Shown: positions 1 to 57,949 of the stretch, in pieces
Position numbering within the stretch: the first letter of the stretch is position 1
Layout of the letters: the number at the start of each line of letters is the position of its first letter
Assembly: GCF_964355755.1 (NCBI RefSeq)
Contig: NC_092680.1
Coordinates: 4,712,001 to 4,776,000, forward strand
DNA from: Antedon mediterranea
Lineage: Eukaryota; Animalia; Echinodermata
Direction: 5' to 3'
Length of the DNA: 64,000 nucleotides
Translations under genes and position numbers: made by a program
The notes under the pieces: generated by a model
The model's input: only the letters and a program-made list of their open reading frames with translations
Databases searched by the model: none
What the model was told of the DNA's origin: nothing

Positions 1-3000
1 ACGGGTTTATTAAGCTAGTCCTATAGTTGCGATGTTTATCGTGATTTTTTTCCCCTGATGAGTAGTAGTTGAGTGAATTGAACGGTGGGTTGGATGAGTA
101 ATAGGAAGGAGGCACTCCTGTTATTAAATCCAACAATTCTGTGCTGTCACCGTCGATGTTTTAAGTAAATCATAAAGTGTTGGTTAAACGAAGTAAAATG
201 CAAGGTGAACATAATTTAGCAATGAAAACTATTACTGTAAAATGACAACTTTATTAAGTTTAATTTATATAATTTATCCGTAACCTCGAGACCTCGCGAG
301 TGTCTGTCCAGTATCAAATCTGTCTATTCTTCGAACCAACGTAAATCAAAATATTATCTAGGATTCTCTCTGTGTTAAAGTGGGAATACATATATACAAA
401 AAAAAAACCTGTGAAAAGGCGCACTGATGTTGGTTCGATAATAGACAGACAAAAACCTCTGTATCATAACAGGTCAACGTTTACATCACATTAGTAGACC
501 AGAAGAAATTGAAAAAAAAATCCTCCTACTGCTAATACAGGTAGGGTACAACTCTCCCCTGCTTTGCTTACTAATATCACTTTGTTTAAATTTTTGCACG
601 GTACCGTATTGTCTAAGTACGTTATAATAATAATAATAATAATAATATTTATCGGTTACTATCCTTTAAAAAACGGAGGAACACTCGCGGAACAAGAGGT
701 TCGACCTATACAAAATGTTTAAAGAAATAGTAGTTACAATATATACACAGATACAAAAAGTTAATAACGGTTCACAATTACAAACGTCAAACGCAAATTC
801 TACGGACTTAATACAGTAACAAAAAAAATATCTAAAAATAAAAACGTTGCTATCCAATGCATATTTCTTTAACAAAGCTATGAATAGAATTATTTGGATA
901 TAGTAATACGTAGGGGAGAGGGCATGACATAAAGTACCCGATTTATTTCACGATTTGGTAATAAACAGAACAGTTATTCAAGTGCCAAGTGTTCAATTAC
1001 CCTGTATATATTGGCCCTGAAATATTAAACATCTTCCAAAATCAAAACATAGTAATTAGGTATCATGTTTTCCTGTTCCATAGACAAAATAGTAAGTTGC
1101 TGCTAAAGCGGAAATTAGGAGGCTCTAGCCATTATTTTTGTTTTTATTGCTTTGACTGTTTTGCCTTGTCATAATAAATGTTTTCGTTCAGATGTTATAA
1201 TGCCATTGACAAACTTTGGAGGGTACCCATGAGTAGTAAACTATGTATGATTATAGCATGAAAATATATAGGCATAATGTGTAAAAAAATATTCTAAGTT
1301 TCAAAATAAATACTTTATGCCTGGTTATAGATTGTTTTATTGCTCTTGTAGCATTTCTTAATTTTAACTGTAATACTTATATATAGCATTACGTGTTATA
1401 AGTATTGATTTCCAGAATAATCTATATATTCGTTTCCAGGAAAATCGATATAGTGGTTACATCACAACATCTTATTACCATCTCGAGTTATCTGTATCTT
1501 CAATGTGGACTGAAATGTTAAATAGCACGCCCTCTATCCGCATTTTGCCAAAGATTTTAGGAAGGAACTTCTAGTATTTAGTTCGGTCAGAGTTTCTAAG
1601 CTTAAAATTAGGCTTGTATTTAACTAAAATGTACGTTAATTGACATAAATAGAAGTTACTTCGTGATACACTCTGATTCATTATTGTAGAAAACAAGGAG
1701 ATGGAAATTAGTGAGAATAAACCAACGTAACCTTGTTTTAAAAGATTCTTATTTTAGTTTTGTTGGAGATTCAGTTCGGTAGGTCTGCTGTCAAAATACG
1801 TAACGTGAGACATTGGACTGGCAAGCAATCATAAATTGTAGGTTTACCGGTAGTCGGATACAAAAATGATGTCTGTACTTCATTTTGTAATCCTTAGAAA
1901 TGAAAAAATAAAGTTTGTTCTTCCTGTTTGTTTCCAACCGCTTTGAATAAGTCAATGTATGATGGATAACTAAATGGAGCGTACAGTATACGAAGAATCG
2001 AAGAATTAGAGGTTATTACTGCATTCGTGAAGGCGGTCATTGCTCTCTCTGCCCCCCTCCCCCCACCCCTTGATGAAAGAAAGAATCTTACATGGTATAG
2101 CATAATCGCCTTAAAAATGTGAATATTCCTTTATGCTGTTCTGAACACCTTTTCACCAACTTTCTGTGCCTTCCTGTTTCAAATAGCACGTTGCGTTCCC
2201 TTTCATGTTTGTAGTATTTTTCTTCAAACAAATACTGAGAATTTACCCATATCAGTAACATTATGAAGATGCTTATAATAAAGATTGAAAGGGGTGAGTG
2301 GGGGGAGGGGGGTTCTTTTCAATATTCCAAAATTATCTTTAAATACAAGTATAACCTTCGCGTGCTAAACCGTTTGGTGCCATCGAAACATTAATTGTCT
2401 CCGTCCTGGTGCATGGATGTAAAATTGTACAATTCCAGATCTTATCAGGGAGATCCTTTCCGCATAAACTTAGAGAATGTTTGGTTTTTAGCCAATATTT
2501 AATATCATGTAAAACTAAACAGGAATATGGTTATACCAGACAAAAATCTTATGTCGTGCTTCATTATTAGTTTATTTTCTCTATAGTTAATTAAAACATG
2601 TTTGGCAATTTTGCCTAAAATATTTGGTCAATTTCCAGCTAAAAGTGAATGTAAACAGACTGCTGTTCCAAAAGTGTAACTGTTTTAATGACACCAGACG
2701 CCATGGCAACATTTTCTTCAATGTGTGACATTACATTAAATTTTGTTTTTCGTTTCTTTAAATGGAATAGATGCGATTATATTTTTATTTGAGTATACTT
2801 GTTATTGATAATGCCTCTTGGTCAAGGAGACACGGATGTATGAACCTAGACAATCTGATGTATCTTAGATTACCCATTGTGGTATACCGGTATTTGGAAA
2901 AACCCCGTTTAAGGGAATATTTAAACTAACTGTTTAAACTTTGATTATTCTAACGTAGTAGAGGCGCCTGTTTTGGGGTTAAATTTGTTTGAAAAATAAC

Positions 3001-3277
3001 ACCGTCTTACCTACTGTAGCTTTACTTACATTATGATATTATTAAATACAGTAGAGCTAGCCAACTTTCGCTATTTAATTTATTAATAATGTGTCCTGTA
3101 TCATAGAAATATTATAGAGTACATTGCACTATGTGACACCTGTATCAAGCCATAAGCCTTATCTAGCCATTATCTTAACATAATACAGGCTTCACATGTT
3201 ACACTTACTGTGACACTGTATTACATAATTTGCCGAATATACAGTAAAGAGATCGGAAGTAAGTGTGTGTAGTGTAA

Positions 3278-3400
3278 AGCTCTGTCTACATTATCTAACT
3301 TTATGTGACAACAAATGTGATGTGCCCATATATGGACACAATGACGTCATAATTACATTTTTTTTTAGTCACACTATAATTTGATAGTGTAGAAAGAGTT
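3278..3400. mobile_element. Harbinger-type MITE family A copy (TIR AGCTCTGTCTACACTATCAAACT)
   Basis: TIR-bounded (degenerate right TIR) and homologous to about 15 copies in the window. Confidence 0.75.
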
Positions 3401-6400: not shown

Positions 6401-6747
6401 TTACCTTTATAAAACTTACATTCATAATTTAAAAGTTTGAAGGCGCCAGTAAAGTTACCGACAGAAACTTTCAATTTCATTAGAACATTTCGTATTAGGT
6501 ATTTTGAGATCGTAATCGGACAGTTTTAATATTTCAGTTAAGATCTTAAAGTGAAAATGACATTATCGTTCTAGGCCTTTTGTGGGACGTTTGTATCTAT
6601 GAAGAAATATTTTATATGTCTGAACATATAGTCATCAGAACGAACAAATGCTCAGAGAGAATACCAATTGATATAATGTTACATTCATTATCAAATTGAA
6701 ATTCATCTTATAGTCTTTCCTGTTTTCTTATAAACAAACATCATTTA

Positions 6748-6881
6748 AGCTCTGTCTTCACTATCAAACTAGTTTGACAAAAAAAAGTGTGATGTGCCCA
6801 AATATGGTAGTGATATGACATCATCGTGTCCATGGAACATCACATTTTTGTTACATAAAGTTTGATAGTGTAGACAGAGCT
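6748..6881. mobile_element. MITE family A copy
   Basis: Both TIRs present, internal gcccaaatatggtagtgatat unit. Confidence 0.85.
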
Positions 6882-8113
6882 ACAAAGCTTCTTTTTTTTA
6901 TCTATCTGAATAATCGATGAATGAAGTAAAAATAAGAAAATTAAAAGCAACATGTTGTAATAATAACACGCGACATCATTGTTGTATAAATATTATATGT
7001 CTACGATAATTATGATCTTTTGTTTGAAGATTTGTGACTATTTACAAACTGTTTAAAACACCTTGACATTTTCAGTAGAATAACACAGCGTAACCTTTTC
7101 AATAATTGAAATAATTATTATTTCTAACTAAATATATAGGAAAACTAGTACTTTCGGTCATTGTTACTTAACATATTGACCTACAATTTGGCTTTACAAA
7201 TCATCATGTCCTTTAAAATGACAAACAGCTGATGTGATTTCATGAAAATGTTCGAAATGTAGGCTAAAAATATCAGAATGCGGAATTTCATATTAGCCGT
7301 TGTCAATTTGCATTAATATATTTCGACGTTAGACTTCGTTTGTAATTATAACTAGGCGGATGGAGTAACTATTAGGGCTAATGAATGTACTGCCCAAAAG
7401 TGATGGCTGGCGTAGTTACCAAAATTGGGATTCAATTGTATTTTATCGGAAACAAACTAATGGTATTTCTTGTACCGTAGTCAAACTGTATGGAGAAAGA
7501 AACAAATGAGAATTGAAACCAAACGTTAACATCATGCTACTTTTAGAAATCTTACGGATATACAGACAACACTTGTTGGTTTTTACGTCTATGACGTGTA
7601 GACCTACGACCTACGTACGAGAACTTGCATTGATATAATCAAGTTCAGGCGCGCGCGTACAACAATCAACGCGCGCGTACAATTGCAGTACCATTGTCAT
7701 ACTCATTATTTGAACGCCACATGTACGTACGTGTGTGCTGTGATCATCTTGCCGGAATTTACCACCTTGTACGACAAATCAAAATAAATGACTACAACGG
7801 TGTATGTTGACAGTATTACCGTTAATAGATATTTTTAAATATGTAGCAATAGACATATTTTGGCGTTGTCTGTTAGCACATTCAATTAACGGAAAATCGA
7901 AAGGTTGACAAATACGGTCAGACATGACATGTAGCATTATTTACCCCAGTAATGACTTTCCGAGGTGTTTTTACTGTTAATGTAAAGGAAATAACGTTTT
8001 TCTAGACGATTACTCACCGAGGTCAATTTGGTATCTTCGGTAGTAAATCGTCGACAGATTATTATAGTCTTTTCAGTTTTCAAGAGTTGGAAAACAAACC
8101 AAATTATACTATA

Positions 8114-8642: not shown

Positions 8643-9928
8643 TAACGATTAGCAAGTATTTACAGTATTTTAATGAGCCAATGTTGTTAATTCAATTCAT
8701 CACAGCACAACTATTTTGATACTGTCTGTAGACTGACCATGTACTATTGGACATTTTATTTTTTGGTTTAACATTGTCTTATTAACAAAGTAGCCTATGT
8801 GTTTAATACTAAATTCACTTTCTGAATGTTTTGTATGGTAGGCCTTACAAACAACTGAACTCGACTATTGATTGTTTTAATAGACTAAGAAATAAACTTT
8901 TACTTTGACATGGTAACGTGTTGCATTCCTATGCCGCATTCACACTTAGTCCGTTCCACAAGTATGTGTGTGAATAAATGTGCTTTAAAAAATTACAGTT
9001 ACTCATCGTCGTTTATTCTTTACCGGTTGTAAGGATATCATGATACTTTAACACATTAACACAAAGAAAGAGGGGTTTTTCTATATTTTATAGTCGTACA
9101 AGAACTTCTCTTTTCGATAAAGTCCAATGTATGGCTTAGTTAGTTAGATCCGTGTCAATAAATAACATAACTACAGTATCGATAAAAGAAATTCGGTTAT
9201 CTTTATAACTAGAAAGTATACAATTCAAGCAAATACTAACGATTATAGGCCAAAATATGAAACTGACGTGTATCTATAGGTTGACTCATATATATATAGG
9301 TCTCTATTCGGTTTTAGATGTGATTTTTCTAAACAGAAAAAAGGTTCAATACTTTGTTGTATTTATCTTACGTCACAGACCCGTACTTGTAGGCCCAGGT
9401 ATCAAAGGTCACTAAATCCCCTCGTAAGTAGTATAGTAACCTATGGGAGTATTGCAAGGGACTGCCTCCCATGGGGAATCTTATAGCTTACATACTAATC
9501 ACTTGGGACGAACTGGACTTATGAGATCGACCTATTGTAGTACCACTTTAGGAGTTTAATCTTGTGTTGTAATATTTGCTGAGACACAAAGCGTATTTCG
9601 TTTTATTCGTAGGCCTAAGTATACGGTACAAGTTTAATTCATAAATATATCCGCTCGTGATTAATAGGCCTTAAAAAGTTTTATATTAATGTTTGTTAAC
9701 TATATAAAATATTGATAGACCTACTTCTTCCCTAGACATTTATTTCATGATGTTCAAGAGGTCAAACATTTTAATAATACTAAAATTAGAAGCCATCAAT
9801 TATAATTAAATTGTTATACACATAGATAGTAATTGAGAAAGTTCTATCAAAAGAATTTTTATGGAAGACATTCATTGTATTAACTTTTTTCTGATGGGGA
9901 TAAACCTCAGCTGGTACTAATACCTTAA

Positions 9929-10154
9929 AGCGTGGTTCCCACTAGCGACGCAACGTAACGCAACGCAACGACGTTTTGACGCAAAGTGCTGTATTACGAA
10001 TCACAAGTGGGAATCGACGACGAAACAACAATGCTAGCTGCAAATATCGCAGATTTGATTTCATACAGAGGCAGGGGTAAACACAATTATCGGAAGGGCA
10101 TTTTCTTACGTTGTGTAGGTTGCGTTACGTTTCATCGCTAGTGGGAACCACCCT
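9929..10154. mobile_element. Harbinger-type MITE family C (TIR AGCGTGGTTCCCACTAGCGA)
   Basis: TIRs with TAA TSD; homologous to 30825-31036. Confidence 0.85.
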
Positions 10155-10776
10155 TAATATGCCTATGACTTGTCCAGCTCTGGGATTCATATTGTTAATA
10201 GAATTGCTTAACCTTTTTATTTGAAATTCTATCTAATCCTTTCATGAAAGATGAGCTTAATTTCTTAAAGCTTGAAGTATATAACTTCTTGGTCTTCATA
10301 TTACATGATAAATTGAATTTGTAGACATCATGAGCTATTGATCCTTATTGGCTTTATTCCAGTATAGTGCACGACTGTACGCCCTTTAGATTGCGTATAA
10401 TTAATACAAGCCGACTGCAAAAGATATTGGCGTTTTTCCATAACATGAAACAATATACTGGGTAATTATAATTAATGTGTTATTCCTGATATTGAATAGT
10501 TCTTCCATGATTAAATTACATTCCGGCTACTTATACCTTTAGTTTTTATATTATTATAATCCATGTTAGCGTTTAATTTTGTTGGCATATTTTGACTATT
10601 GTCCGTGCAACGAAACAATACGTATATTGTAAATAATAGTGATTGGAGAGATACATACATACATTATATGTATAGGCCTCTACATTACAACTTAAGCATC
10701 ATTAAAAGCAATTGTTTATTGGCATCAAACGACCACGTTTTGCCTTGGGATGAAATGATATATTGCTAATATATAG

Positions 10777-13767: not shown

Positions 13768-13926
13768 AGCCGATTTTCCACTAGGCGAATTTGTTCGCGC
13801 GAATCGAAGGCGTCAGCTAATACGCATGCGTAGAGAAGGATGTGGAAGATGTAAACATGAATACACATGCGTACAAGCTGGCGCTTTCGATTCGCGCGAA
13901 CAAATTCGCCTAGTGGAAAATCGGCT
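13768..13926. mobile_element. Harbinger-type MITE with ~41-bp perfect TIRs (AGCCGATTTTCCACTAGGCGAATTTGTTCGCGCGAATCGAA)
   Basis: Perfect long inverted repeat with TTA-like flanks and intact CpGs. Confidence 0.85.
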
Positions 13927-16900: not shown

Positions 16901-17358
16901 GTGTGATTCATTTTATGATGAGATCAACATCATAAGTATTTGACTGTTTTGAATTCAATAACCTAAATTTGTCTTAAACCGAATAATGGACTTTATTGCG
17001 AGATATTCATCATGTTATGGCTCACTGTAATTGTAATCTAATTGAAATAAGCAGTAAAAGTAAGTCCAGATCTAAGTTCGGAGGAGGAAGTTTGTTAATA
17101 AGCTTGTCAGTTTTATATATCAGAGGTTCACACTCGAGCAAGGTAGAAAAAGTCGTCTGCTAAAGCGCGCGAGTATTTCACTTCCCCAGCAAACTCGTCA
17201 CTTCCCTCTGACTGATCGGCTAAGCGTATAAAGTTCCAAATTTCTAAGTGAGCGCTGATTTTCGTGCATGGATCAAACTTTGAGTCATCGGCAGGGGATC
17301 TAGGCAACCTTCGACTCTAGAGTTTCTGAGATAGAAACGATATTGTTTTCAGTTGACA

Positions 17359-20300
17359 ATGTCTTGGTTGATAAGCAAGGTTTATACTACTTTGAGAGGT
17401 GCCAATTCCTCAAGATCCACAAATAGCTCCGTAGCAACAACAAGATCATTTAGTGATGCCGATTCATTGGACCTTAACTGCACCGTCAGTCCAGGGAATA
17501 GCCAGAGATTTAGTTATATGTCATATAGTAGTGCTGATAAAGATGGGTCTTCGTGTGATGGATGGAGTCGACCGGAATCTACTGCAGGATCTATTCACGA
17601 CAGTGAGTGCCCAGATGGGTTAATTATAAAATTATATGGGGAAGATTACATATTTAGTGATGGCGAATATCGGCCAATGCACCGGGAACCAGAATCAAAA
17701 CGACTTTCCACAATTTCAATCAGCTGTTCCAACCAAAATAATGAGAACGAAAAGATTTTCTATGGAACGGATGTTAATGAACAACAATATGAATGGTCAG
17801 ATGAAAAAGAGGACTGGATTACACCCCTTGAATTTTGTGGCAGAAATAGGCAGTCTAAAAGGAGATCAGTAAGGCCTAAAAGTGAAAATGTTGACGAAAT
17901 GTGGACACGAGTCATGAAATCTGTAAATGAATCATTCGATGATGAAGACATGGATTTGAACAACACCACATTTGAAGATACTTTAAAACTAGCCACGACA
18001 CAGACTGTATCTGATATAGCCAAGAAAGAACCAGAATCAGACAATAACCAGCAAACGGTAAATTTTGACAATTGCATAAGAAATGTAAACAAAGAAAAAC
18101 AGGACAATTATATTGAAACAATTGAAGATAATAACTTCATAAATGATAATATAAACAATGATTTTATTATAAGACCTGAAACTGTACAACAGTATATAGA
18201 AGTAGACTCCCTTCCAGACTTTGATTTAGAGATTGTTTCGAAAGAGGAGGAAACGCAAGATGGTGCTGATATGTTTGTAAATGATGAACCAAAACCTGAG
18301 GATGAGGATGAATTTCGTTCTAGTTTAGCCGGAACGTCTGATATTCTAAGCGAAATTTTCAATCATTTTGGACTTCCATCTGATGTGGAGAACGAAGAAC
18401 CGTTTAAATCTGTTGAATCGACTGCGCATGTTCAGTCAATCTCGAAAATAGAGTGCGCACTCAACTCAGAAATAGATTCGTCTCGCGAGATTAAACATTT
18501 TGAACAACCAAAATCAACAACGTTTAGTAGAACTGGTAGCTACTCTTCATTAAGAGATATATTACCAGATGACGATGTCGGTCTCTTTGATGAACTTGAG
18601 TGTATATTCACTGATAAGCAGTGCTCACTTTTTGAGGATGAAGGATCCTTAAAAGAAAGCGATGAGATCAGTGCGCTGCGCAAAAGCATTGAGGATATCG
18701 TTAGTGAGTTAGACAAAAGAACACACAGTGAATTACAGCTCAAACGACTAAGACAATCCTTGAAAAAGCTTAGTAATTTTGGAACAAGAAGTATCAAGAA
18801 AAATAAACAACTTAAAACTAATTCGTCATCGGTTTCCTCGGCAACCGATACAGACGACCAGTGTGAACGCATGCATAACGCTTGCAGCAAGCCCATGAAC
18901 ACGCAGAATCCCCATTCACACGAAACCCATTCAAGCGGTAAAAATACATCAACATATTCTGATAATAAAGGGAGTTTGGATTATAGTTTTAACTTGAATG
19001 GCCTTGACTATGATCAGCCTATTGAACACGATTCTATAGAATATGCCGTAACAAATAACATATTCTCTGCTGAATCCGATGTGTTAGGTAAAAAGCAAAT
19101 AGAACGGGCAAATACACGCTTCATACCGTTTGTCGAGTCAATAAAGGCTTTGCGTTCGAATAGTGATGGTCAACAAAACGTGAAGCAACGCTTTAACGCG
19201 TTATTTAAAATCAAGGGGAAGCATACAGCTAGTAACGTTACACGCGGCGGTGAAGCTGACAAGAATCCTACTGAATTAATTCGGAACTTTCACAATAATA
19301 AGGATTTATTACTAAAAGATGATACTACCGAAAATAGCAACGGTGATTCTAAAGAAATCACATGTTCCGGAAATAAGGCAGGCGATAAATTGACGATGGT
19401 CAAAGTCCAGCCTGAATTTACATCGACTAAAATAAATAGAAGATATCGTAAAGCTTTTCGTACTGTAAAGTCTGATCAAGAGTCAATCAACGAGGATATT
19501 ATTAAGGGAGAAAGCGTAAATAGTGAGTACCCCCATGTTGAATTACACCATTTGCAAGATTGTACACAAGTGTTTGACTCTGAGTTAGGGTATGAACCAA
19601 CAAATGTTAGTGATGTTTCGCTAACGAATGCTGATTATAAAATGGGATGTATTAGTGTATACTGTAAATCAAAATCACAGGATACTGAACATTCAGAAGA
19701 TGGCAATTATTATATTAATAAGGGTGATAACCGACTTGTTTGCAATGAGGAGAATGGAAAATATGGATTCGAAAATTCCGTACTTGATAAGGATATTGAG
19801 GAATCCAGTCATGAAGATGAGCTGGAATCCAGGATAGCACACCGAGACCCCAGATTGCAAATCTCACTCAAGAATGACAGAAATAAAAATGGCATGAATT
19901 ATATTTTGCCGGAAATTCAGAGCGTGAGCCAAACCGAGTCATCATACAAACTAGGCACCGGTTTAACGAATGATTCAGCTTTATCAGTTGATTTCTTAAA
20001 AACTGAACAAGCGGACAAGGACGACCTCGACAGCGGGTTGGAGTGCCAGGACGAAGCTAGAGAGGAAGATATTGGTCGCTTTGACCTAAAACACACCAAT
20101 GAACTGTCTGAAAATTGTACTAAGGAACCCAAATACAACTCATCGTATTCCGAAGAAACAATTTCTATGAGTGATTTCAACGAGTTGCTCACTGACCGTC
20201 AAGAATACAGTAGCGAGGAAATTGAGAATTTTGTGGCAATTAAATCAAAGGAAACTGAAATTGATGATTATGACAAGATATCGGATGATGTAGATTCAGA

Positions 20301-23300
20301 CTCATTTTGGCAGGAACCTTTTGAGTTTTGTTCGAGTAACTCACCACTTAGCTCACCGTGTTTGGATGACCATGGTAAACAGAGTGCTACGGAAATACTT
20401 GAATTGTCAACACTATTCACTAACACTGTAGGCCAAAGCGATATATTTAATAGCATAGGCTACGAAATGGGGAATTCGGCAACGTCTGAGCAGCGAAGTA
20501 TTTCAGAGGACGATAACGATCACAATAAGGACGGATTTTGGGAAGTTGGTGTGAAAACAAGGCGATCGAGTGCGTTTGGAACGAAACGAGGGTCAAATAG
20601 AACATCGCAATTTTACGTTCCTCTGAGTGTCGAAGAAGATATAATCGTCCCTCAAACGGTAGGAGCGGTTTATTTAACTCCAGTTGAAGATTCTTCCACT
20701 GATGATCACATAATGCGGGATAATTTGACAGAGAGTTCCTTTGATGGAAGTCTACAGGATGGCAATCAAAGCGATTGCACTTCCGTTTCCTACAGCTCCT
20801 CGTTTGGCATTGCTTGTATATATAACGAGGATACAGAGACAGTACATAGTCACGAATCGGTAAATATACCTAATAATGAACGTGTTAGAACAGAAGATGC
20901 TGACTCTCTTATTAGTGCATCATCAACAGTGATAGATTCGGAAGAACATGTGAACGTCATCCAAAAACAATCGTCAAATCAGTCTATGAGTGCAATCAAC
21001 CAGGCTATTAATAACTCATGTTCAAAGATCAAACATTGGAAAAGTGTTGATGGTATGGTTTATCGTTTAAATGAAGATAGTAAACGTGATAAGAAACTGT
21101 TGGTTTCACTGGATCCAATTTATGATCGTCAAACTCTAACCAGCAACATGAATGAAGATTCCTTGATGAATCACGAGGAATTAAATAATAACTGTAATAA
21201 AAATGGTTTGACACTCAAATCGTCGGAAGTAGTTTTAAAGAAAAATGTACGGGTAGAAGAAATGACAGTTAATGAAATGGAAACAACAAACAGCAATGGT
21301 CTTGAACAAACAATAGAATGCTTAGAAGACGAATGGCAAAGAAATCGATTATTAAGAAAGAAAAAAAGAGATGACATGAAAAAAAGAGAGCAAGCTCTGC
21401 AGGACAAGGTTGATTGGGTTCGAGATGAAATCGTAAGTTTACATCATTTTTATAAACATAGGCCTACATGGATAATACGATTTAAATAGCTTTTACATTC
21501 AATGGCTCATGTCCTGAATAATTTGTTATGCAAATGATCGTCTATAGTAGCCATCTGGTACAACATACTGTTATTACCCTGTTTAAAATTATTCAAAAAC
21601 TGTATTTGATTTAACACAGTGTGTAAGTATACAAACACCATTTTAAACACAAATTTATCAACATGTATATTTATATAAACACAACAGGCAAATAACATTA
21701 ATTTTATATATGTATATAATTAATTCAAAAATTGCTGATAGTATATTGTAAATAAAGTGGCTATGGCTTAACCCTCCTTATATATTCCACTGCTTCACAA
21801 ATCTCGTAACAAAACAACATTTTACCTTTTGTTATATTAACGTATACACACTACTAAACAATCGCGCCCCGGCACTATAATGTATACCATTCTACACAAA
21901 GCTCAGTTTTTGTATTATCTTCACAAGGTATGGTGAACTATTTATTTACTGCATATCACATGTTAGGTAAATATACTTAAAAGTATGCCATGACATAGAT
22001 AATTCACAAGTCAAGTCCTGCACAAAGAGACAAAGTCCGTTAAATATAATTTTCTTCCATTGGTATGACTAACCCATATTATATCTGCCATAACTCCGGA
22101 AATCTATATAATAAATTTAACCATAAAATATATTCAACCACAGTACAAATAAGTTTTTATTATTCTTTTTTTTAAAAGAGAGGAAATACTAGCATAATAC
22201 TGGTAAATACTGAAAACTAAAATACTGTACAGAAATTACCAATAATCCTTAGTACTGTGAATACAGTAAATGCATGTATTTGGCTACAGAATGTTTTAAT
22301 CTTTAACATTTTGTTAATGTACATATGTCCAAAGTTACGTAATATTATTCAAGTAAACATGACAAAAACATGTCTGCTTTCCGGAATGTTATAAAATGAT
22401 CTACTAAATGAAATTAAAAAACTTTCTTACAAATTAAAAAAAAATATTTCAACAATAATTTTGAAATAACAAAATTAATAAAACAAAAAAATGTCAAATT
22501 TATTTTGGCTTCTGTGCTTCCCTTGTTTACTAAATAATGAAAAGCAAAACATGATTGAATAAAGCAAGCGACCGATATATTGTTCTATACTAAAGTTCTG
22601 TCTACACTATCAAACTCAAATGTGCCCAAATATGGTAGTAATATGACATCACCGTGTCCATATTTTGGCAAATCACTTTTTTTGTCACAATAAGTTTGAT
22701 AGTGTAGACAACGCTTTAGTACTAACATTATTGGGGAGAAGAACCTTGATCATCGTCTCTGCTATGGGTCCATAGACCCGAAAGTACCTTAGGCCTATCA
22801 ATTTCTTGATGAACGGTGTCATAACAGTATTCATGTAAAACTTGACATTTCTCGTCCATTTATTTAACATATTCCATATGTTATCGATAATAAAACACAA
22901 ACAAAAGGCGTCAATATTAAGAAGCAAATTGCCAACCATGATTACCAAGTAACTTTAGCTCATTTGTCCTCATTATTCGTCACGCGTTCCAAACTCATTA
23001 AGAATAGTAATGTTTACCAAATGAACAACATTATCATCTCGTTATTGTTGGTCACCTCATCTTCTCTGTCTTTGTAGTAGAGTTCCCACTGATTATATGC
23101 GTTGTTCTCGGTTGAGCGCAGCTGCTACCATACTTAAACAATAGGTTACATTAAGACTAACGATAAAAGTAGGTAAACATTACGTCAGACATGAAAATTA
23201 GGCCTAGGCCTACTTCATTATGCATGATGTTACCTACCTACTATTATTTCAATGTTGAACTATTATGATTGAATAGTCATTTTTAACACTGATATATGCT

Positions 23301-31952: not shown

Positions 31953-32090
31953 AGCTCTGTCTACACTATAAAACTATTTTGACAAAAAAGTATGATATGC
32001 CAAAATATGGTAGTGATGTGCTCAAATATGGTAATGATATGACATCATCCTGTTTTTGGTCACATAAAGTTTGATAGTGTAGACAGAGCT
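31953..32090. mobile_element. MITE family A copy
   Basis: TIRs with a TAA target-site duplication on both sides. Confidence 0.88.
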
Positions 32091-36591: not shown

Positions 36592-36745
36592 ATTCCGGTA
36601 CTTTTTTTACGTTTTTTTTTCTTTCTTTCTTTTTTGTGACGTACCGGTACAGGTACTTCTTTTACGTCTTTCTTTTTTTGTGACGTATCGGTACCGGTAC
36701 TTCTTTTACGTCTTTCTTTTGTGATGTACCGGTACGTTTTTTACT
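36592..36745. repeat. T-rich ~40-50-bp tandem repeat between convergent RhoGAP and CYP 3' ends
   Basis: Repeated accggtactt(c)ttttacg(t)...tttgtgacgt. Confidence 0.8.
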
Positions 36746-36984
36746 TCATATTGGGTACTACCTATTTAAAAGTATCGAGCATTTAAAATGTATTACAAAA
36801 TATCTTAAATAAACAATGTACAATTATAAACAGTAGTTTTAACTATATATATAAACAGTGCTCAATTTCTTTATAAAAACCAAGCCAAACAACTTTTTAA
36901 ACTATCATCAAAAATTTTACTTTTATGCAATTAAAAATCATGTTAAAATCAAGTTTAATCTTGTTTTTATTACTTTGTTTGTAT

Positions 36985-39900
36985 TTAACTAATCCATTTG
37001 TTCCCTCGAGGAATCAATTGTATTTCAAACTGGTCCGCCACTCGAATCATATCTGGCTCTGATGGTTCAGTGCTTGTAGTAAGTTTACCTTGAGGTGCAG
37101 CTAAGCTGAACCTTTGTAGAACGGCGCCGAGAAGTGTAAAAACCATCATCTTAGCGAACTGTTCTCCTAGGCACATCCTCCTACCAATTGAGAATGGAAG
37201 GAAACTAGGCGGTGTGTAGATATTGCCTTCACTGTCGAGAAATCGGTCTGCATGAGAAAATAAAATAATAATAACAAACATGAATTTGTAATTCTTTATT
37301 CGAATAAATACGATATACAGTGGGTATGTAATTGTATCTAAATGCATTTACAATTTCTAAAAAAAGGTAGTGTAGTAATTTCAATAGAACATGCTTCCCT
37401 GAATTTTGAATGTCTAGTTCACCATCGTCGGACCACACTGCAATTACATAATCATTAATCAATTATAGCAATTAATCTATCACTGTATTTAATCAGAATC
37501 CGACCCCCAAAAATAGACAATTAACAATATCAATTTATTAATCGATAGCTGATCGATCCGGGTCATTAGCCTGCTCCTCACCTGGATTGAACTCAGCGGG
37601 TGAGGTCCATCTGGATGGGTCATGGTGAACCCACCACAGGTTAGATAACACCATCGTTCCTTTTGGTATTTTATACCCACAAATTCTACAAAAAAATAAG
37701 AAAGTACAGGCCTTTATTTAGTTTGTTCAGCTACTAAATTACTGTAAAGGACATTACGTGAGCATAGTTCCACTTAAATGCTTTCCACTGTCGACATTAT
37801 ACTACTATAGTTATGTATATAATATTTCCTTGGGATTTTTTTTCTTTTCTTTTTTATCTGTCTGTTTAAATATCATCTTTTTCTATAGGTATTCTGCTTT
37901 TTTTTTAACATTCTTTCTTCAACTGTTATCGTTTATTTTTTTATTTTTTACCTACATCTTGTTTACTGTCTTTTTTAAGTAAATAGGCCTAAATGTCACT
38001 TTGAATTTAATTGAATTGAATAGGTTATTATTCATTTGAACATAATAAGGATATATTTTTTAGTTATACGGTATAGGCTATGCTAAAAATTTGATGGCGT
38101 TTTTTCTTTTCTTTTATTCACATTAATAATGTTCTCACTCTGTGTCAGTGATAGTCTGATGGGGTCCATTGAGAGAAGAAAATGAACTATGACGTAAGAC
38201 TTCGAGAACTGTAGCTTCTAGATACCGTAAGTGGCACCTGTTTTTCCAAATTGGATATTGATTTGACGAGTTCTCGTCCAGTTCATTTTGTATCTTAGTT
38301 TGTACCTGTAAAAAATAAAACGAATTTATCATTTTTCCTGGTTTTTAAAATGGATCTTTTTTTTTTCAATGGGAAAAACGTCATAATGTAAGATGACACC
38401 GACAACGTCCAGTTCATTTTGTATCTTAGTTTGTACGCGGTAAAAAATTTAACAAATTTATCATAGACTATGATATTTTTCCTTGTTTTAAAATGGATTT
38501 TTTCAATGGAAGAAACGTCACATTGTAAGATGACTTCAATACTGTTTCACTCGAACAATACACGAAGATTTATTCTGTGTTTATATGCAGGGAGACTACC
38601 AATATAACTGTTACAATGAATGGTAGAGATTTTGTATTTCGTGAATTACCTCTTGGTTAACGGTTAGATATAACATTGCCCATCTTACGGTTTGAAATGT
38701 GGACTCAAAACCACTAGCAAACATTTCCCACGATGTCATAACCCCTTCATCTTCACTCATGCCAAGGCTCAAGAGGGCGTCAACAAAGTCTCTGACGTTT
38801 TCAGGTTTGTAGCTGCATTTGTGACGTTTGAATTCTCTCATAAAAACTTTTTCTCGGATGGAAATCAGCTGGTCAACCAATAGCTGTCGTTTGTTTGGAA
38901 AGATCTAGAAGACAAATAATATTATGAAATAGCTGAGACTCGATCGATTGCGATTCAGACGAAATATATTTTCTATAATGGGTTTAATGGTTTTAAATTT
39001 ATATAGCGCAAAATACAAATAGTCTCTATGCGCTGTTTAGCGTGAAAATGAAAATTTTGATGTAAAAAAAACCACGAAATAGCCTAAGAAAAACCGAATA
39101 AATTGACAAACAGAAAAAAAGACAACAGAAAAAAAAGTCCGAAAACGGAATCTTACACCGCACTGTTTCACTAACTTGTCAAGACAAGCTAGCTATTTAT
39201 TCACAAGTGTCATAGTTAATTAAACACCGTACATTACTTTAAACATTAGATTTTATACCATTCTTAAGATCGGATCAAACACCACCAATACCATTACCAG
39301 TTATATATTGAATACCGTCTCGTATAGTAAAGTACCAACCGTATTATAGCCGAGTAGGGTTCTCAGCGAAAGGCAGTGCCACTTATATTAGCCATATAAT
39401 CTCTTTTCGATCGTGGTGGAAGTCAACGTCCTTAAAGGACGATCCGGCGTATATCTGCAGGTACGGTTTCGAGTGCACGTCTGAGAGCAGCACTTACCTG
39501 CTGTATGGAGTTATTCGGTGTTTCCCTGTCGATAATTCCCTATTTTAGATAATTTGATGCAATATACTACGGTACTGTTTCCAATTGTGGCTCCTATAGA
39601 CCAAAAAAGAACGTTTTATGTTCTAACAATACCCAACAGTTTACTGACCTTAAAAAATGGGAAAACATCCACGATGTCACCTGGTTTGAGAACTATCTTC
39701 AGGTTATTATTCGCCTGAATGAGTTCCTCTAGTTCAGGATCACCGTCTTTATATCGTACACTACATGTAATATTCATAATAATATTCGTGATCACAACTC
39801 CTAACATGCCACTAGGATCAAACGCGTTGCGTTCCATGTTAAAAGAATTCAGTAACTCATCCACATCTTTGAACATCCCTGTACTTGTATCTTCAAAATA

Positions 39901-40356
39901 CCTAAGAAACTTTGATCGAAACGCTTTTGTTGACGCGTTTTTGCGTTTAACCCACGGTGTAGAGAAATTCCGGAAGGCAATACCTCCGTCGCCTCGCGAC
40001 AACCTGCCGATTGAGTATACATGTGGACGACCAGAGAAATCATCTTTTCTCAAGACAAAAGCTTCTCTAATAACCTCTGGACTATTGAGAACTAGCACAT
40101 CTTTGAATGCAAGTGACACCATAAAGACTTCTCCATATTGTTTACCTATTTGGTGTAGCGCGACGTAGGGCGGCACTTTCTTCATGAAAAGGTCGATGTT
40201 GCCAAGTATTGGGTATCCTCTTGGTCTTGGAACTCTGTGCTTTCCAGTAGAATATGCGTTTTTTCTTAAATAGAGAAATAAAAATAAGAGGCTGACTAAA
40301 ACCAAGGAAAGCACTATTCCTCCTTCTTCTGAGGAGGAACTTATTGTAAAAATCAT
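36985..40356 (-). CDS. Cytochrome P450, clan 2 (CYP1/CYP17-like), 498 aa, 5 exons
   Basis: Exons 40356-39649, 38904-38650, 38305-38139, 37685-37582, 37247-36985 total 1497 nt in frame. N-terminal TM anchor, PRPRGYPILGN proline hinge, I-helix EMFASGFEST, K-helix EVLR, FNPDRF (PERF), haem motif PFSIGRRMCLGE. Confidence 0.93.
38276..38534. repeat. 130-bp tandem duplication spanning the CYP intron 2/exon 3 boundary
   Basis: cgtccagttcattttgtatcttagtttgtac occurs at 38276 and 38406. Confidence 0.85.
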
Positions 40357-42028
40357 AACTATATTGATAACGTTGATATAAAGTTTGCGGTATGTTGATA
40401 AAGCTACTCAATTGCCAAAACGAACATTAAAACAAGTCTGTTCACTTATATTTAAGAACTAGAATAAGAACGCGCGTAACCGCTAGGTCTGCTATTAAGA
40501 TATTTGCATATACCGTGGGTAGGTCTACTCACATCTGGCAAGTGTATATTATAAGCTTACCTTTAAATCCTAGTAAATTGATAAGCCTTCCTTATCTCTA
40601 AGAATTCTATTTAAATTTCTATTAAATATAAGTAAAATATAACGAGGCACAAGAAGAGCGTTTAATGATTTGTGAAATGTTTTACAGTAGACCTAAAGTC
40701 AGTGTAAAACTCTAACTGAATGACGTCACATGATCTGAATGAAGGCGGCTCAGCCGGCCGATCATCCACGCGACTTATTATCAAAATACCGTGTTTCATT
40801 ATTTTATAGAAATAAATACTTGGGTAACGGTACGCATTTTGTTGTTTTGACAATCATTATTATCTTATCAAAACAGTGCTTTTGTCATCAACATTTCTCA
40901 CTATCAATGAATCATTATTATAATAATATGATAGGTTCAGACCCAACATTTTTCTGTATGTTGTAGATGAACCACACCTCCACCCATGTGTTTCTTCAGT
41001 ACGAGACGACAAAGACATGTTAAATTAATGAAATACATCATTAGAAATAAATAAAAATGATTAAAAAATGAATTGGAATCGTTATGATTACAGTCGTGCA
41101 ATCCTGTATTTATTATGAAAAAAATCGGTTATTGGTAGGCCTAATACTGAAAAGTGTCTGGAAGTAATATCTGGAGAGTTTTCAAAATAAATGTCTATCC
41201 ACTGATGGTGGAACGCAAGTGGCTTCAATTTGTCTGGATTTCCGTAGTGAATCCTTTCGTATTAGGCTGCTAAAGCCAACAAATGGTCAATTCTTGAAAT
41301 ATAATAATGATTTAATATAAAGTATAACCAGAAGAGGTACTATAAAATTATGTCTTTTTACTTTTTACATTACTTTGAGGGCGTGCTTGTGATTCTTTTG
41401 TTTTCTCCGCCGTCGTGGTGGTGGTTGAAAAACGATAAACAATAATGAATCTGTCAAGCCTTCTAATATTGTAGATTTTATCGTCTTTTCTGTTAGAAGT
41501 TAACATATTTATTCGATAGCTATATTTATTTTATGACAACAATGATTTTTCGTAAGTATGTTGTATTTTGATTATCTCCTGTTTTGTTTTTTGGCCACAA
41601 AGTGGTACCTCTGGGCCCTCTAGGAATAGATCGACTGAAATACCGGCCAGGCATGCATCGCTGGGCGGGGGCTGGGTGGGAGAGCCCTGGATCAAATAAA
41701 ACTAATTGAGGGAGTTTAGGCTTAGCAACTCAGCTCTGATACTGATAATATGTATTGCCCATGTAAAGCTTTAAAACATATGAAATACATTGTTAAGCTA
41801 GGCATATAATAAGTTATAAATAATTAAATAATAATATATTATAGGCCTAGTTAGGTCACAAAATTATGCTAGGAGGCTATATAGCCTATATTTGTTTATA
41901 TTCATAATAATGTATTACTCTTTATTAAAGCAGAGACGCTGTATGTTAATAACCCCTGATTGATTTTTCACACCTCTACCTCATTCAATCGATTGAGTAT
42001 AACTGTACGATTAAACTTGCCACGAAAT
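40357..42028. promoter_or_regulatory. Divergent promoter region shared by CYP (-) and KLHL (+), including a probable KLHL 5' UTR exon
   Basis: Head-to-head ATGs 1.7 kb apart; TATA-like AAATATAAG on - near 40450; gtaagt donor at 41552 and cag acceptor near 41933. Confidence 0.45.
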
Positions 42029-51247: not shown

Positions 51248-52674
51248 GTGAGTGATTAATTTGTATTTGTTTATTAGAACTATTCTGGTATATATTATTT
51301 GTATAAATCTTTGTTGGCCACCTTCACCTTCTTCTTTCTTGACGTTGGCGTAGCCTCCTAGAGAGAGGCAGGGTAGGCCTAGGATAGATAGCTAAGCTAG
51401 CCTTGCTAGGCCTAGCTAGGCTGTAGTAGGCCAGCCTAGCCCCTCTATCTAGCCTAGGCCCTAGATATTTTCTGGACTTAGGACAGTTGGCTAGGTAGCC
51501 CTAGCCTATTAATTATTGATATTAGGCCAAAGTCTGTGCTGTGAGTTGTTGATTGATATCCGCTTTAAACTGCATTTATACCCTGCACACAGCACAGTTA
51601 GGTTGTTTTACTAAACTTTAAATAATTTTTTTTCCACTTTATAATGTTCATTTGATCAAGAAAGGCCTACAGTTACAGCAGCATGATTTAATTGCTTTTT
51701 ATTCAATGAATTGAATGAAAGAGGCAGAGAGTGTAAAAAATATACTGTAGGGTAGCCAAAGAATACCGCAAAATGACATCACATTTGCAGAAAAGGGATG
51801 AGGTTATTATTATAGCATCGGTCAACCGGGTTATTTATAATTTTTCATTTCCTATCGGCATGGTTGACCATACAGTACCATATACCAAATTAATTGACAG
51901 CACGGTCAAACCATGCTTCTAATGGCTTGTTCACTACCGGCAAGGTCGACTGTGCCGATGAAACATTTTACATAATTACTGTACTGTACATACAGTTTAC
52001 ATTCAACTGTACCAATACATTATACTGTACAATGGTTGATATGTACCTTTGGAACAGTTGACCACACTTTTTGCAAAAAAGAGGCTAAACTAAATTTGGA
52101 AATCAATGGTTTAAGATATTCCCATCATCAAAATTTAATCATTTAAATTACAGTACTGGTGTTGTCTTTCCATCATTTTTTATTTTTGTGGTACTGTACA
52201 CCATGGGTTTCCAACAGGAAATATCCATGGACACATACTGTAGTGTAGTGTACAAACCTAACTTTAATATTGGTTTGTTAAAACTGACTAGCAAGCAGTA
52301 GCCTACTGTACAGTAGTATAATAATTATATTTAATAGTCGTTCATCTTTACTTACTGTATTATTAAAACATTTCAATTAATTACTAAATCAGGCCTTGTG
52401 TGTAATTGTAGCAAAATCAAGTCAGTATAGTAATTAATTAATGCTACTGTATACAATATGTCTCATGTAAAATATTGTAGAGTACAGGAGTTATTAGATG
52501 AGTAAAGTTTTTTTGATGTAATATTATTAAAATATTAAAAATATATTAACATTATTTTTAGAAGTAGTAACTGTAATGTAAATGTTTTGATAACAGTATA
52601 TACTATTATTCAGTCTGAATTTTGTGTGCAACATTCTCTGACAGTGACTGATAAGGGTGTGTTATTTCTGAAGC

Positions 52675-53449
52675 AGCTCTGTCTACACTACTTTATGTGA
52701 CAACAAAATGTGATGTGCTCATACTGTATAGACATGATGATGTCATACAGTATATTTGGTCATATCACTACCATACTTGGGCACACCATACTTTTTTTGT
52801 CAAACTATGATAGTGTAGACAGAGCTTCACTGTGACTGCAGTCAGGCATTTCAGATCTGTTGTTTGGAATGAATCCATTATGCACACACACACTTTACAT
52901 ATTAAATATTAAAATGTCACAGAGAACTGCAATAAAAAATTCCCAGAGCGTATGCTTCATCGCATAATGCAATAATGTAATTTTACATTAATTGTCACCT
53001 TGATGAAGACCGTGCCATGCTTGAAAACATTTCAGGATAGAAGTTTCTGAAACTAAAGCTTTGTCAAACTAGTTTGACGAAAAAAGAATGATGTGCCCAA
53101 TACTGTATGATAGTGGTAATTGCCCAAAATATGGTACAGTAGTGATATGACATCATCATGTCTATATACTGTACAGTTTGTATGCCCATTATATTGTCAC
53201 ATTGTAAGAAAGTGTGATACATTATTAAAAAACATTTTTTTTACTATGGGATACTGTGGACTAAAGCTCTGTCTACAGTACAGTACACTATCACTAGTTT
53301 GACAAAAAAGTGTGATACCAAATATGGTGGTTATATGCCCAAATATGGTAGTGATATGACATCATCATGTCCATACTGTATACAGTATGGGCACATAAGT
53401 AACATTTTTTTTGTCCCATAAAGTTTGATACTGTAGTGTAGACAGAGAT
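52675..53449. mobile_element. Three MITE family A copies (52675-52826, ~53057-53200, 53265-53449) carrying CAGTA/CTGTA insertions
   Basis: They align to the family A consensus once 5-bp insertions at TA sites are removed. Confidence 0.82.
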
Positions 53450-55720
53450 TAAAGTTAGTTGATTGCATGCACATTAAGCAACAACAAATAAAACAAAGCA
53501 TACTCTCTTAGTCTTACCCACAGCTGTCAGAGCGGAATACAGAAGAAACCTACAGTATAGTTTGAAAACCATTAGAACTTACTGTATCAATGCTAGCACT
53601 ATAAACTATAAGGATTTGATTAGTGCAACTAATTAATTTAATTGCATGTCTATAAAAAAAATGATATTCCTCCTTCATCTACAGTAATGGCCATACAATT
53701 TATAATTATAAAAAAAAAGGCACCAAATTCTCCGATTTAGATCTTATTATGTACAGTAGGCCTGCAGCTGTATATACAGTAATTCCAAAAACCAATAATT
53801 TAAAAAGTAAAGTTCTTATGAAACTATACAACCTAGAAAATCAATATAAAGCCACAACGCCTTCATATTTAACGTACAGTATGAATGTTCTTGATACCGA
53901 CATGTAAAAACAATCAAAGCAGTTATTCTGACAATCACTGAATATAAAATGCATGCATGTCGTAATTATTATGCAGCTAACATCTTGCAGAGATTGCATT
54001 TAAAAATGTATAAAGATTTTGTGTTTTAATAATACGCTGTGTTTAACTATGTACTGCAGTAACTGTACTGTACAAGTTGTTAGGTTCACTATTATCAGTG
54101 GGAGTACACAAATATTAATATGCACTGCTAAGTGTTATACTGTACAGTACTGTGTACCTACTGTACACAATCCCCTCCTCCCCCTACACACACACACGCA
54201 CAAATTATCATTCTACCGGCGTGAAACTATTGTTAACCTGACACTACTGTATTGTTAACCTGTTACAATTGTACTGTATTGCACCGATAACAAAATCAAA
54301 CAACAGACAAAAAAACATACAAAAATATGTTGTAATCATAAAATAATTTTACGCCTTCCTGATCATTTCATTCCAAGTCAGTGAGTGAGTAAATGTTGCA
54401 TAAAGAAGTTAGTTTGGTATGTACTGTAGATAATAATATATATTTTTAGCCTTATTCTTCTCTTGCAAACTCAATTGACGTGAACGATACAGGCACTTGA
54501 AAGCTGTTAATTTTATCACAATATTTATTAGGTCGTTTTATCTATTTTCATTATGTGAAGCTATAAAACCTTTTATCACTTTGCTTCTCATTCTTTGTTT
54601 AATAATATTTTGTATTGTATTGTACTGTAATAATGTAATGATAATAGTAATACTATACTATTTTAGTTAATTTGCATTTACTGTCAGTGAGTGCTTTTTT
54701 TTGGGGGCCGAACTGTTCGTTCAGTACAATTTTAGGATTGGAATTTAATAAAAAGTTGCTGTATACATACCATGATGAAAACAGTAGATACTGATGGGGA
54801 CTGCAGCTGTGTGAGGCCTCAGAAATAGGTACAGAGAGACCTAATGTCATTAGTGTGGAAGACTTCTCAAAACCGTCTCAACTACCCCCACCCCTTCCAA
54901 AAAAAAAAATGGTTTTAATCACAACTTATGTGGGCTGCAGTCTGTCACAAAAATGTATGAACTTTTTTTTGTGACGTCAGTGAAGATTTTCAACCCATAT
55001 CCGCCTAGCACAATTAGATCCATGTTGCACTACAGTATATCAGTAGTGTACAGTTACTCAGCATCACATTATTTGCACCATGAAAATAATTAGTTATATT
55101 ATTATTATTTGCTACCGTAGTTGTAGGCATTAACTATGGAAGAACCATGACATTGACAACAATTCTGTATCATTTCCCTGATCTACTACTATTACAATGT
55201 GGTTTTTATACTTGTGCTAGATTCATGTGTTGATGAATGAATACCTATTTGGCAAATTTCAATAATTTATGTTCATTTTCACTACAGTAGTATTGCGATC
55301 ACCATAGTGACACACTGTACCATGCCCTAAGGCAGATTCTTTGTTTTAATATTAACAATACATGTAAATTACCTATTAAGCTATTATTCTTCAATAAATC
55401 AGAATTAATAGGCTACAGTATTGGGATCAATTGTTTGCTTTCATTGTCAGGATTGTAGTAAAAGAAGTTGACTGTAATCCTGGCCATCATATACAGTAGT
55501 GTAAATAACCGTACAGTAGATTTTCTTGGCCTAATTACAGTACACTAGCTGATTACTATTGACGTCAGAATTAATAGCTAATTAATAATTGAAAAATACA
55601 CACTTATCCAAAGACTGGCAACTGTTTGGGTTTATTTTTTATAGTTACTCTGTTAATTAGTAGTTATGTTGCAAAATAAAAATAATCTGAAATCATTAAG
55701 ATTGTAACCATTATACATGT

Positions 55721-55890
55721 ACTCTAACTACAGTACACTATTAACCTTTATGTGACAAACAAAATGTGATGTGCCCATATATGGACATGATGAGGTCATA
55801 TCAGTACCATATTTGGGCATATCACTATCATATTTGGGCATATCACTACCGTATTTGGGCACATCACACTTTTTTTGTCAAACTACACTG
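55721..55890. mobile_element. MITE family A copy, degenerate
   Basis: Three internal 21-bp units; CAGTA insertion in the left TIR. Confidence 0.78.
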
Positions 55891-55936
55891 ATGGAGATAA
55901 GGTGTTTTAGCATAAATTGGTGACAGTGTTCTACAA

Positions 55937-56104
55937 CGCTGATCTCACTTGGATGCAACGCAACAACGTACTGTAAACGCAACAAAAGTGAGTTGACCAA
56001 TCACAAGCGACAGTTTGAAAGGGTCCATCATGTTGTGATTGGTCAATAAATTACAGTTCGGTTTATTGTATGTCCTTGTATTGTATCGAAGTGGAAACTA
56101 AGCT
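55937..56104. mobile_element. MITE family B copy, CpG-decayed
   Basis: Homologous to 27822-28000; CTGTA insertion at 55971. Confidence 0.72.
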
Positions 56105-57949
56105 TTAGTGAAAACGGGCATTTTTTTTTTGTTCAGCAATGTGTCCAATTGGAATGTTTGCTAGGCTATAATACCAAGAAGCATCCTAAAGATATGATTC
56201 GTAATTTTCTCTGCAGTTTATAATCTTGCTATTGTATCAGCATTGTCCACTAATACGCCGTTTAATTCCATAATGAACACAGCCTTATTGGTCAGATTGA
56301 TACAGCCACAGAATAAATCATTACCTATTGCTGTAAATGTATTATCAGTGGATTGGTATAATCCAATTGTGATTTGTTAATCCTATTTTAAATCCTGTAA
56401 GCCATGATCTTATCTCATTTCTCATCTTAAATTTCATAAACTGTAGGAATATCATGTGTGACTAATGACAATACTTGTACTTTAAAACAGATAAATCCAT
56501 AGTATATTGTGAATGTGAATACTGTGAATGTTTGCATGCAACATTAGAGAAAAAATGAAAAGCTTTTGCTGATATTCCATGAATTGCTGTACGCAATTAA
56601 TTGTGCAAGTTTGATATGCAAACCATCTTCAATGTTGAAACGCAGTCGTGCGATTCATTATGTTCAGATGCTGCTATGTATGCAATCAGGCAATTCGTTA
56701 GAGGTAGTGATTGCGTGTACGATAAACACTGAGTTAGATCACCATTAACGCTATGAATCTACATTGTTGTAGTAACGCGCCCCATTTAGTCGTATTGTAA
56801 ACACATTAATACTTAAACATTAACACATCAATTTCACTACTCAAGCGAGAATTAACTATAAACAAAACTTTCCTTCAACTTCTGTTGTTGAACTAAATTT
56901 GTTTTTGTATTTTACTTGCCACTTGTTTGAAACATCTTCATAAGAGTAGTTTTACTCAAATAATAAATTATGAAACCATCATGATATGCATTATTATGAA
57001 ATTCTCAAAGTTTTCAGTTTAATATTATTATTCTTTAGCCTGATCATTGGACATTTAACATCAAAATAAAAAAATAGGATTTTCCCTTAAGACATATAAA
57101 TTTGATTTGGTTTGATTCTGGACTTTACTAAGTGCACAGCAATAGTTTTAGCTGTTATGATTTTCCTAAGAGACTACAGTATGTATACAGTACCAAACTA
57201 CTGACATAAAGTTTGTCCTAGATCTGTTTATTCAAGAAAATATGAATGACTGGTAATTTCAAATTAACCTACCAATATTTTGTAGCTTGCTTTTTTTTTC
57301 TATACATTTTAAAAATCTAATTTTTATCTAACCATTTTGTGCTGCTCTGTGATATTTAATTGACCATTTCATTGAATCACCTTTCTGCTGTCCAAAAATA
57401 TGATCCAGTCTATTTCGTGCCTATAGCTGCTTACCAGGATAAACCGACAAATGCCTTATTTCTCCTCGAATAGCAAGATACTGTATACTTGAAAAGTAGA
57501 AAATTCATTGAACACGACCCCTCTCCCTAAATGGTACAGTCCACAAACCTCAAGTGGAAGCATCCCCAAATATCACGATCATCATAAATACACCAAAAGC
57601 AAATTTGTATCATAATTTAGTATCACAGTTTTTTGTTTTTTTTTTTGTATTTTTCTTTTAAGTTAGAAACCAGGATTTGAGCCTGAAGTGAAACTGACAA
57701 TAGCCTTTAATTAAGCATGGAGTTATTTTTTACCTCCATGCTTGAAGTTGACTGTTCAGAAACTACTCAGGCTATTGTGTTTAGGTTTAACTATCTGTAT
57801 GTACTATTGTTCAGTTCAATTTATTTGCCCTATGAACTTCACATTCTAAAGTTGATACTTTTGGAATTTATACAATGACTGCAATCATGAATAAAAGAAA
57901 TTTATATTATAAAAATACTTCCAAGGATACGATGCATATAAACCTACAG

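Follow-up and report, generated by a model that had tools for sequence, protein, structure and literature searches.

Short TA-bounded words in a stretch of Antedon mediterranea DNA as candidate excision scars of TA-targeting transposons

This study examined 64,000 nucleotides of the echinoderm Antedon mediterranea (assembly GCF_964355755.1, contig NC_092680.1, positions 4,712,001 to 4,776,000 of the forward strand; hereafter, the window), and in particular three families of short words that begin and end with TA, here called the CAG, GGC and CCG types, that may be excision scars of cut-and-paste transposons. The window is animal DNA of 34% GC and carries a gene with a 4-kb exon and several short exons, a P450 gene, the first exon of which is 100% identical over its aligned part to a protein assigned to the crinoid Antedon mediterranea, and a kelch-BTB gene. 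The 4-kb exon (17335–21432) is a single coding exon, acidic and of low complexity, has no Pfam match, and is spliced in frame to an exon at about 29558. Near the right end lies a GC-rich, DIRS-like retrotransposon (57950–63090) with perfect inverted repeats of 159 bp, complementary repeats in its interior, and reverse transcriptase, RNase H-like and integrase SAM (tyrosine recombinase) domains in frames interrupted by stops; a decayed copy of its left end is found at 57407–57585. A miniature inverted-repeat transposable element (MITE) of 140–190 bases, which we take to be Kolobok-like, is present in high copy, with 16 copies in the window (including 3275–3398, 6746–6882 and 28657–28828), AGCTCTG ends and TTAA/TTTA-like flanks. 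There is a second such MITE family (9925–10157, 27817–28024 and 30799–31042) and a 159-bp hairpin element (13768–13926).

The GGC-type 8-mer, TAGGCCTA, occurs 30 times in the window, compared to a mean of 0.51 and a maximum of 2 in 100 dinucleotide shuffles; the original prediction had given about 25 copies, with fewer than one expected. The CCG-type 8-mer, TACCGGTA, is found eight times (shuffle mean 0.68, maximum 3); three of these (36642, 36692 and 36727) share one tandem unit, and the six independent occurrences compare with 0.63 expected (Poisson p 5e-5). The companion 7-mers are likewise enriched relative to an order-2 Markov expectation, as had been claimed for the GGC type (8 TAGGCTA and 9 TAGCCTA, together 17 vs. 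6.4) and the CCG type (TACCGTA and TACGGTA, 17 vs. 6.9), while the CAG words TACAGTA and TACTGTA number 87 against 17.6. In 60 order-2 simulated sequences, the observed count was not reached for any of the five word classes. GGCC flanked by a doubled non-TA dinucleotide occurs 0–1 times for each of 15 dinucleotides, which shows that the excess requires TA on both sides. Among palindromic TA-N4-TA words, GGCC and CCGG alone are enriched (2 of 16), and among the TA-XNX'-TA classes only CAG, CCG and GGC (3 of 8). The summed excess within positions 1–57900 is about 127 words and 670 bases, or some 1.2% of the sequence; these words do head the lists of over-represented words, but the idea that they dominate short-word composition was overstated. 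Full-retention 10-mers are absent from the window, and other words made from one overhang or from a 1+1 join show no enrichment (TAGCTA 11 vs. 12.8, TACATA 78 vs. 95). The pair TACAGGTA/TACCTGTA (12 vs. 3.4) was considered as a possible CAG 8-mer and rejected, with five copies in the DIRS-like element, two at splice sites and one in the tandem unit.

Copies of TAGGCCTA are dispersed from 6187 to 51414 (unstranded, as are all the words, chains and zones below unless a strand is given). All lie outside host coding exons, as foreseen, although 0 of 30 against 2.6 expected gives a p of only 0.06. The only copy at first flagged as exonic, at 21459, falls 26 bases beyond a GTAAGT donor whose use keeps the reading frame into the following exon. 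Another, at 35696, lies about 4 bases into an intron that follows a short exon, directly after the GT donor, which an insertion there would leave intact. Positions cited in the original prediction agreed with ours to within one base (9610, 13949, 16840, 24604, 26066, 1845 and 12851), and the tandem runs it described are present: two TAGGCCTA with a common TA at 23199–23212, attributable to scar re-insertion or slippage, three at 26066–26085, and two TACGGTA at 27294–27305. At 32725–32743 there is a chain of TAGGCTA, TAGGCTA and the 9-mer TAGGCCCTA with TAs in common, and a patch at 51345–51530 is dense in GGC-type words, with two 8-mers, two 7-mers, one 9-mer and decayed forms. The 17 GGC-type 7-mers span 7260–56168. 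Five TACCGGTA are isolated (1845, 2885, 3750, 12851 and 30618, the last ending at 30625). The others belong to a three-copy tandem unit on the plus strand (36627–36750), in which two copies have a doubled TA-CNGG-TA and one a single TACCGGTA, a 6-base difference that insertion, slippage or deletion could produce. As for the CCG 7-mers, a P450 exon contains one TACCGTA, the DIRS-like element contains one TACGGTA, and the TACCGTA at 55847 is a substitution in the MITE sequence TACCATA, not an insertion.

The CAG words are strongly clustered, with 44 of the 87 in a zone at 51701–56000 that holds 480 TA sites, 9% of which are thus occupied by TACAGTA or TACTGTA. This zone includes stacked words and adjoins the GGC-dense patch. 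Alignment of the MITE copies reveals CAGTA or CTGTA added where sister copies have plain TA, so that a TA stands on either side of the inserted bases and only one TA at the unoccupied site. Eleven such words, not all of them clean, occur at 72 TA sites in the four copies within the hot zone, vs. none at 167 TA sites in the 12 other copies; three copies at 52675–53453 provide examples at 52722, 53135, 53274/53279, 53374/53381 and 53429. CAG-type words are, therefore, small insertions at TA in this genome. The hot zone resembles the outcome of intense local hopping close to a donor once present there, and such hopping would account for the density of words. A further 5-base insertion in a MITE copy, at about 28757–28770, can be read as GTCC duplicated about a single G and is not at TA.

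Evidence for the GGC words came from other organisms. Metagenome contigs were scanned for triple TAGGCC, giving 112 loci; from the full set, L001–L003, L014, L053 and 23 loci of more than 53% GC (viral duplicates and GC-rich array contigs) were left out, leaving 87 of 115, and word counts were made on 85 loci (about 294 kb) after removal of the duplicates L017 and L062 and masking of the seed and hexamer arrays. Since these loci were chosen for triple TAGGCC, they are biased to GGCC-rich genomes. Three viral loci with triple TAGGCC, which have no genome-wide excess, were dropped. In the retained loci, TAGGCCTA occurs 165 times against 3.0 expected, and the GGC 7-mers 114 times against 26.6. 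L029 and L017 form an allelic pair, identical over 196 bases, whose 201-column alignment shows a single difference, +GCCTA in L029 at a TA; L080 carries +GGCCTA at a TA that is empty in L033, L072 has a +GGCTA insertion, and L026 a doubled insertion of 12 bases. Among the five-base gaps, TA is duplicated in 4 of 23, two of them clearly GGC-type; among six-base gaps it is duplicated in 3 of 20, and each of these three is GGCC-type, the first clean, the second carrying a transition and the third poorly aligned. The only gap of 12 bases consists of GGCCTA twice over. The GGC 7- and 8-mers are insertions at TA in the DNA of these other animals. Direct insertion evidence for the CCG type comes only from the tandem unit at 36627–36750, where the difference hints at an insertion but slippage, too, could produce it. 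The scar origin originally proposed for all three families was, accordingly, upheld for CAG in the window and for GGC in other animals only, and for CCG only faintly; in the genome of A. mediterranea itself, the GGC and CCG words would have arisen from transposons. The base beyond the TA is often C at GGC words, both in the window (0.38 for 7-mers and 0.37 for 8-mers vs. 0.18, at 12 and 23 sites) and in the loci (0.33 and 0.42 vs. 0.22). Within the wider set, L013, L015, L031, L038, L087 and L113, mostly GC-rich, contain head-to-head TTAGGG, TTAGGC, CTAGGG and TAGGCC arrays, in which TAGGCC is the palindromic turning unit and a separate source of TAGGCCTA runs.

The proposed mechanism is as follows. 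Entry of an element would duplicate TA, and on exit the cut would fall three bases inside each end, as in Sleeping Beauty, leaving two identical 3-base 3' overhangs. End joining would pair all three bases with a central mismatch, giving the 7-mers. Overhangs that finish in a self-complementary pair of bases, GC for GGC and CG for CCG, could instead be paired over those two, with one base filled per side, giving TAGGCCTA and TACCGGTA. Re-use of scars that retain TA would produce the chains and the hot zone. A Tc1- or pogo-like element would be the source of the CAG words, and a Passer-like one that of the CCG words. For an overhang XYZ, pairing over three bases requires Z to be complementary to X, and pairing over two requires Z to be complementary to Y, so that only GGC, CCG, AAT and TTA ends (4 of 16) permit both; that both enriched 8-mers fall within these four has a chance of 6/120. 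In the window, the ratio of excess 8-mers to 7-mers is 29:11 for GGC vs. about 2:70 for CAG (Fisher p 1e-15). The 9-mer TAGGGCCTA/TAGGCCCTA, found 14 times vs. 1.2 in the loci and twice vs. 0.2 in the window, is by far the most frequent of eight one-base-longer classes in the loci (the next being 6 vs. 2.2), and it fits a 3+2 join, and therefore at least three retained bases. The presence of three word families side by side provides a within-genome test of the rule, and the window spectrum, with 8-mers for GGC and CCG only, passes it. We infer the overhang of three bases, the pairing step and the existence of three distinct families from such word counts, the GGC overhang in particular because no GGC-ended, TA-flanked element was found in the window, the loci or the literature consulted. 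The interpretation that CAG words are insertions at TA, and that all three families are excision scars of TA-targeting cut-and-paste transposons with CAG, CCG and GGC ends joined according to this rule, is given a probability of roughly 0.6.

Several observations weigh against this interpretation. TA-flanked elements with CAG, CCG or GGC ends, which the original prediction had suggested looking for, were not found in the window, nor were TA-flanked elements with GGC or CCG ends in the loci of other animals, and no DDE transposase was detected among 86 window open reading frames scanned against Pfam. No GGC or CCG insertion was seen at 239 TA sites in the 16 window MITE copies, which is uninformative because only about 1–2 would be expected. 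Reads of four runs (one sample, one study) were compared with positions 21301–41290 and, among the 12 listed of 114 indels, none was at a motif and all were in repeats; two contigs over 24060–24848, with 5 and 7 gap letters, were left out of account. CCG-type events were not present among 153 gaps in the loci, where CCG 7-mers are at background (27 vs. 23) although the CCG 8-mer is enriched (8 vs. 2.3). In the loci, GGC 7- and 8-mers have somewhat different flank profiles (p 0.015), and as the preference for C is also seen at TACCGGTA (8 of 16 flanks), it does not mark one family. Two word pairs in the window fall outside the predictions of the rule, TAGACCTA/TAGGTCTA (9 vs. 1.7; sites 4676, 7599, 8118, 9716, 11450, 28179, 40520, 40688 and 50700) and TAGGCCTT/AAGGCCTA (7 vs. 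1.6). The other transition neighbour, TAAGCCTA, is unlike the former at 2 vs. 1.9; it could be speculated that TAGACCTA/TAGGTCTA reflects uneven decay, or is a primary product of another end, such as GGT with two G-T wobbles. The 9-mer could be a product of slippage in G-runs. Finally, the available text of 10.1101/659086 describes mixed 2- and 3-base cleavage by Sleeping Beauty, which makes a single fixed overhang a simplification.

The alternative that survives best, although it is rather unlikely, is that the GG and CC words are scars of 2-base overhangs joined unpaired in the manner of Tc1, a 2+2 join giving the 8-mer and a 2+1 join the 7-mer, with CAG elements cut at three bases and no single rule. 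It yields identical 7- and 8-mers, and for this reason the words alone do not prove the annealing rule. Overhangs of two bases have, in the available text of 10.1101/659086, been reported for Tc1, Tc3, mariner and IS630. It also accommodates TACATGTA, the 2+2 word of CA ends, which bears on the earlier statement that CAG ends cannot give an 8-mer: this fits the window, where the word is not enriched (5 vs. 3.1), but the word is in excess in the loci (18 vs. 6), which would accord with the annealing rule only given the existence of a CAT-ended family in them. On the other hand, Tc1 typically leaves +4 (PMC13148408, available part), yet the corresponding words TAGGTA/TACCTA are at background in both the window (38 vs. 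35.6) and the loci (90 vs. 93). Nor does it explain that both 8-mer families are XX-ended, and the 9-mer requires three retained bases unless slippage is invoked. A second alternative, that the GG family begins with GGCC and is cut four bases inside, so that complementary sticky ends religate to TAGGCCTA with the 7-mer as a minor by-product, is improbable: the 8-mer does exceed the 7-mer in excess counts (29:11 in the window, 162:87 in the loci), and Tc1/mariner footprints match the first or last 2–4 bases (PMC6943129), but it is inapplicable to Passer-type CCGT ends, and so many 7-mers would be unexpected from perfect sticky ends. Very improbable is an origin without transposons, as protein-binding sites or as slippage products and telomere-like hexamers (TAGGCC beside TTAGGG/CTAGGG arrays), for although TAGGCC runs do lie within telomere-like hexamer arrays in several of the fetched contigs, mostly GC-rich, and slippage is able to make tandem runs and the 36627–36750 difference, this is countered by lone, complete inserts at plain TA that have no template close by, by the strict TA on both sides, by the lack at the base beyond TA of the A bias (A 15/60) that head-to-head TTAGG fusions need, and by the allelic difference between L029 and L017, which argues against a conserved site. 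For CAG in this window and for GGC in other animals, an origin of this kind is already refuted in large part.

Candidate sources for the three end types were sought in the sequences and in the literature. Elements with clean CAGGGTG terminal repeats at TA-CAG ends were found in GGCC-rich animal contigs (L064:1479–1561, L077:2412–3182 and L081:925–1690). TA-GG terminal repeats in the loci were internal matches or telomere-like arrays only, and the one clean match in the window (13782–13912) is internal to a longer inverted repeat. In the available portion of the PMC7386202 supplement, the echinoderm pogoR entries are CAG-ended and the six 'Echinodermata' matches are three pogoR rows, none of them Passer; five 'GGC' matches in the same pogo table were discounted, the one row examined being a CAG-ended Tigger with a shifted terminal inverted repeat (TIR) entry. 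Sailor, with ends of GT or CC and a TATA duplication (PMC8533490, text available in part), was rejected as the CCG source: of the 16 bases that flank TACCGGTA, 8 are C and 5 are T. ISL2EU was rejected as the GGC source, as set out below. The accessible parts of PMC4455052, PMC7325037, PMC10045372, PMC10379824 and PMC2874221 name no GGC/TA family, and in open-licence papers no report was found of TAGGCCTA as a word, of natural genome-wide scars, or of a GGC/TA family. No match to the MITE end was obtained in viral contigs, and none to an insertion-specific MITE pattern in metagenome contigs.

Excision footprints and the pairing of overhangs in end joining are already established, and the contribution of the window is the occurrence of three families side by side, allowing a within-genome test. 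Taken together, a known process, an orphan GGC family and the end-pairing rule make a picture that is plausible but unproven. It is possible, if somewhat short of probable, that an undescribed GGC-ended, TA-targeting cut-and-paste family common to distant invertebrates, together with CAG and CCG counterparts, wrote around 1% of the non-coding DNA through very frequent insertion and excision, that the ladder of 7-, 8- and 9-mers preserves overhang length and germline end-joining choices as a fossil record would, and that word counts suffice to deduce the terminal bases of a transposon even where no element is found. If this is true, transposons with no visible copies still contribute to introns and intergenic DNA, both as measurable added sequence and as polymorphism, on a scale of about 2% of TA sites here and 9% in one zone, and over-represented palindromes such as TAGGCCTA should not by default be taken for regulatory motifs. 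The rule also supplies a precise search image, TA-GGC...GCC-TA.

Among known systems, one close likeness is to Sleeping Beauty, which has CAG ends and leaves TACAGTA/TACTGTA scars after a cut with a 3-base overhang; none of the eight footprints given in the available text of its sources is an 8-mer (10.1101/659086; PMC6943129). The words and the TA duplication are the same, and the joining of 3-base overhangs over a central mismatch, a feature of Sleeping Beauty, would apply here as well; the local clustering recalls its local hopping (PMC2874221, in the part available). It differs in that the scars described here are natural and inherited, reach an occupancy of 9% of the TA sites within one zone, and have no source element in the window. 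Passer, a DD35D member of the pogo superfamily, has CCGT ends and a TA/TA duplication, with 316 'CCGT' matches in the available portion of the PMC7386202 supplement, and its footprints of 0–4 bp (PMC9976928, available text) could include CCG and CCGG; no Passer copy or CCGT-ended, TA-flanked element is present in the window. The scars of Tc1 and Tc3 are similarly bounded by TA and composed of terminal bases, and Tc1/mariner footprints in general correspond to the first or last bases of the element, but a 2-base overhang and a typical +4 scar, which makes up 78% of somatic Tc1 scars in C. elegans according to the available part of PMC13148408, set them apart from the words in this window. ISL2EU, of the PHIS superfamily, occurs in animals, has TIRs that mostly begin with GG, and makes a 2-bp duplication (PMC4482050, available part); its duplication, however, is AT in A|AT|T, whereas the insertions described here duplicate TA, and ATGGCCAT is at background (1 vs. 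1.0).

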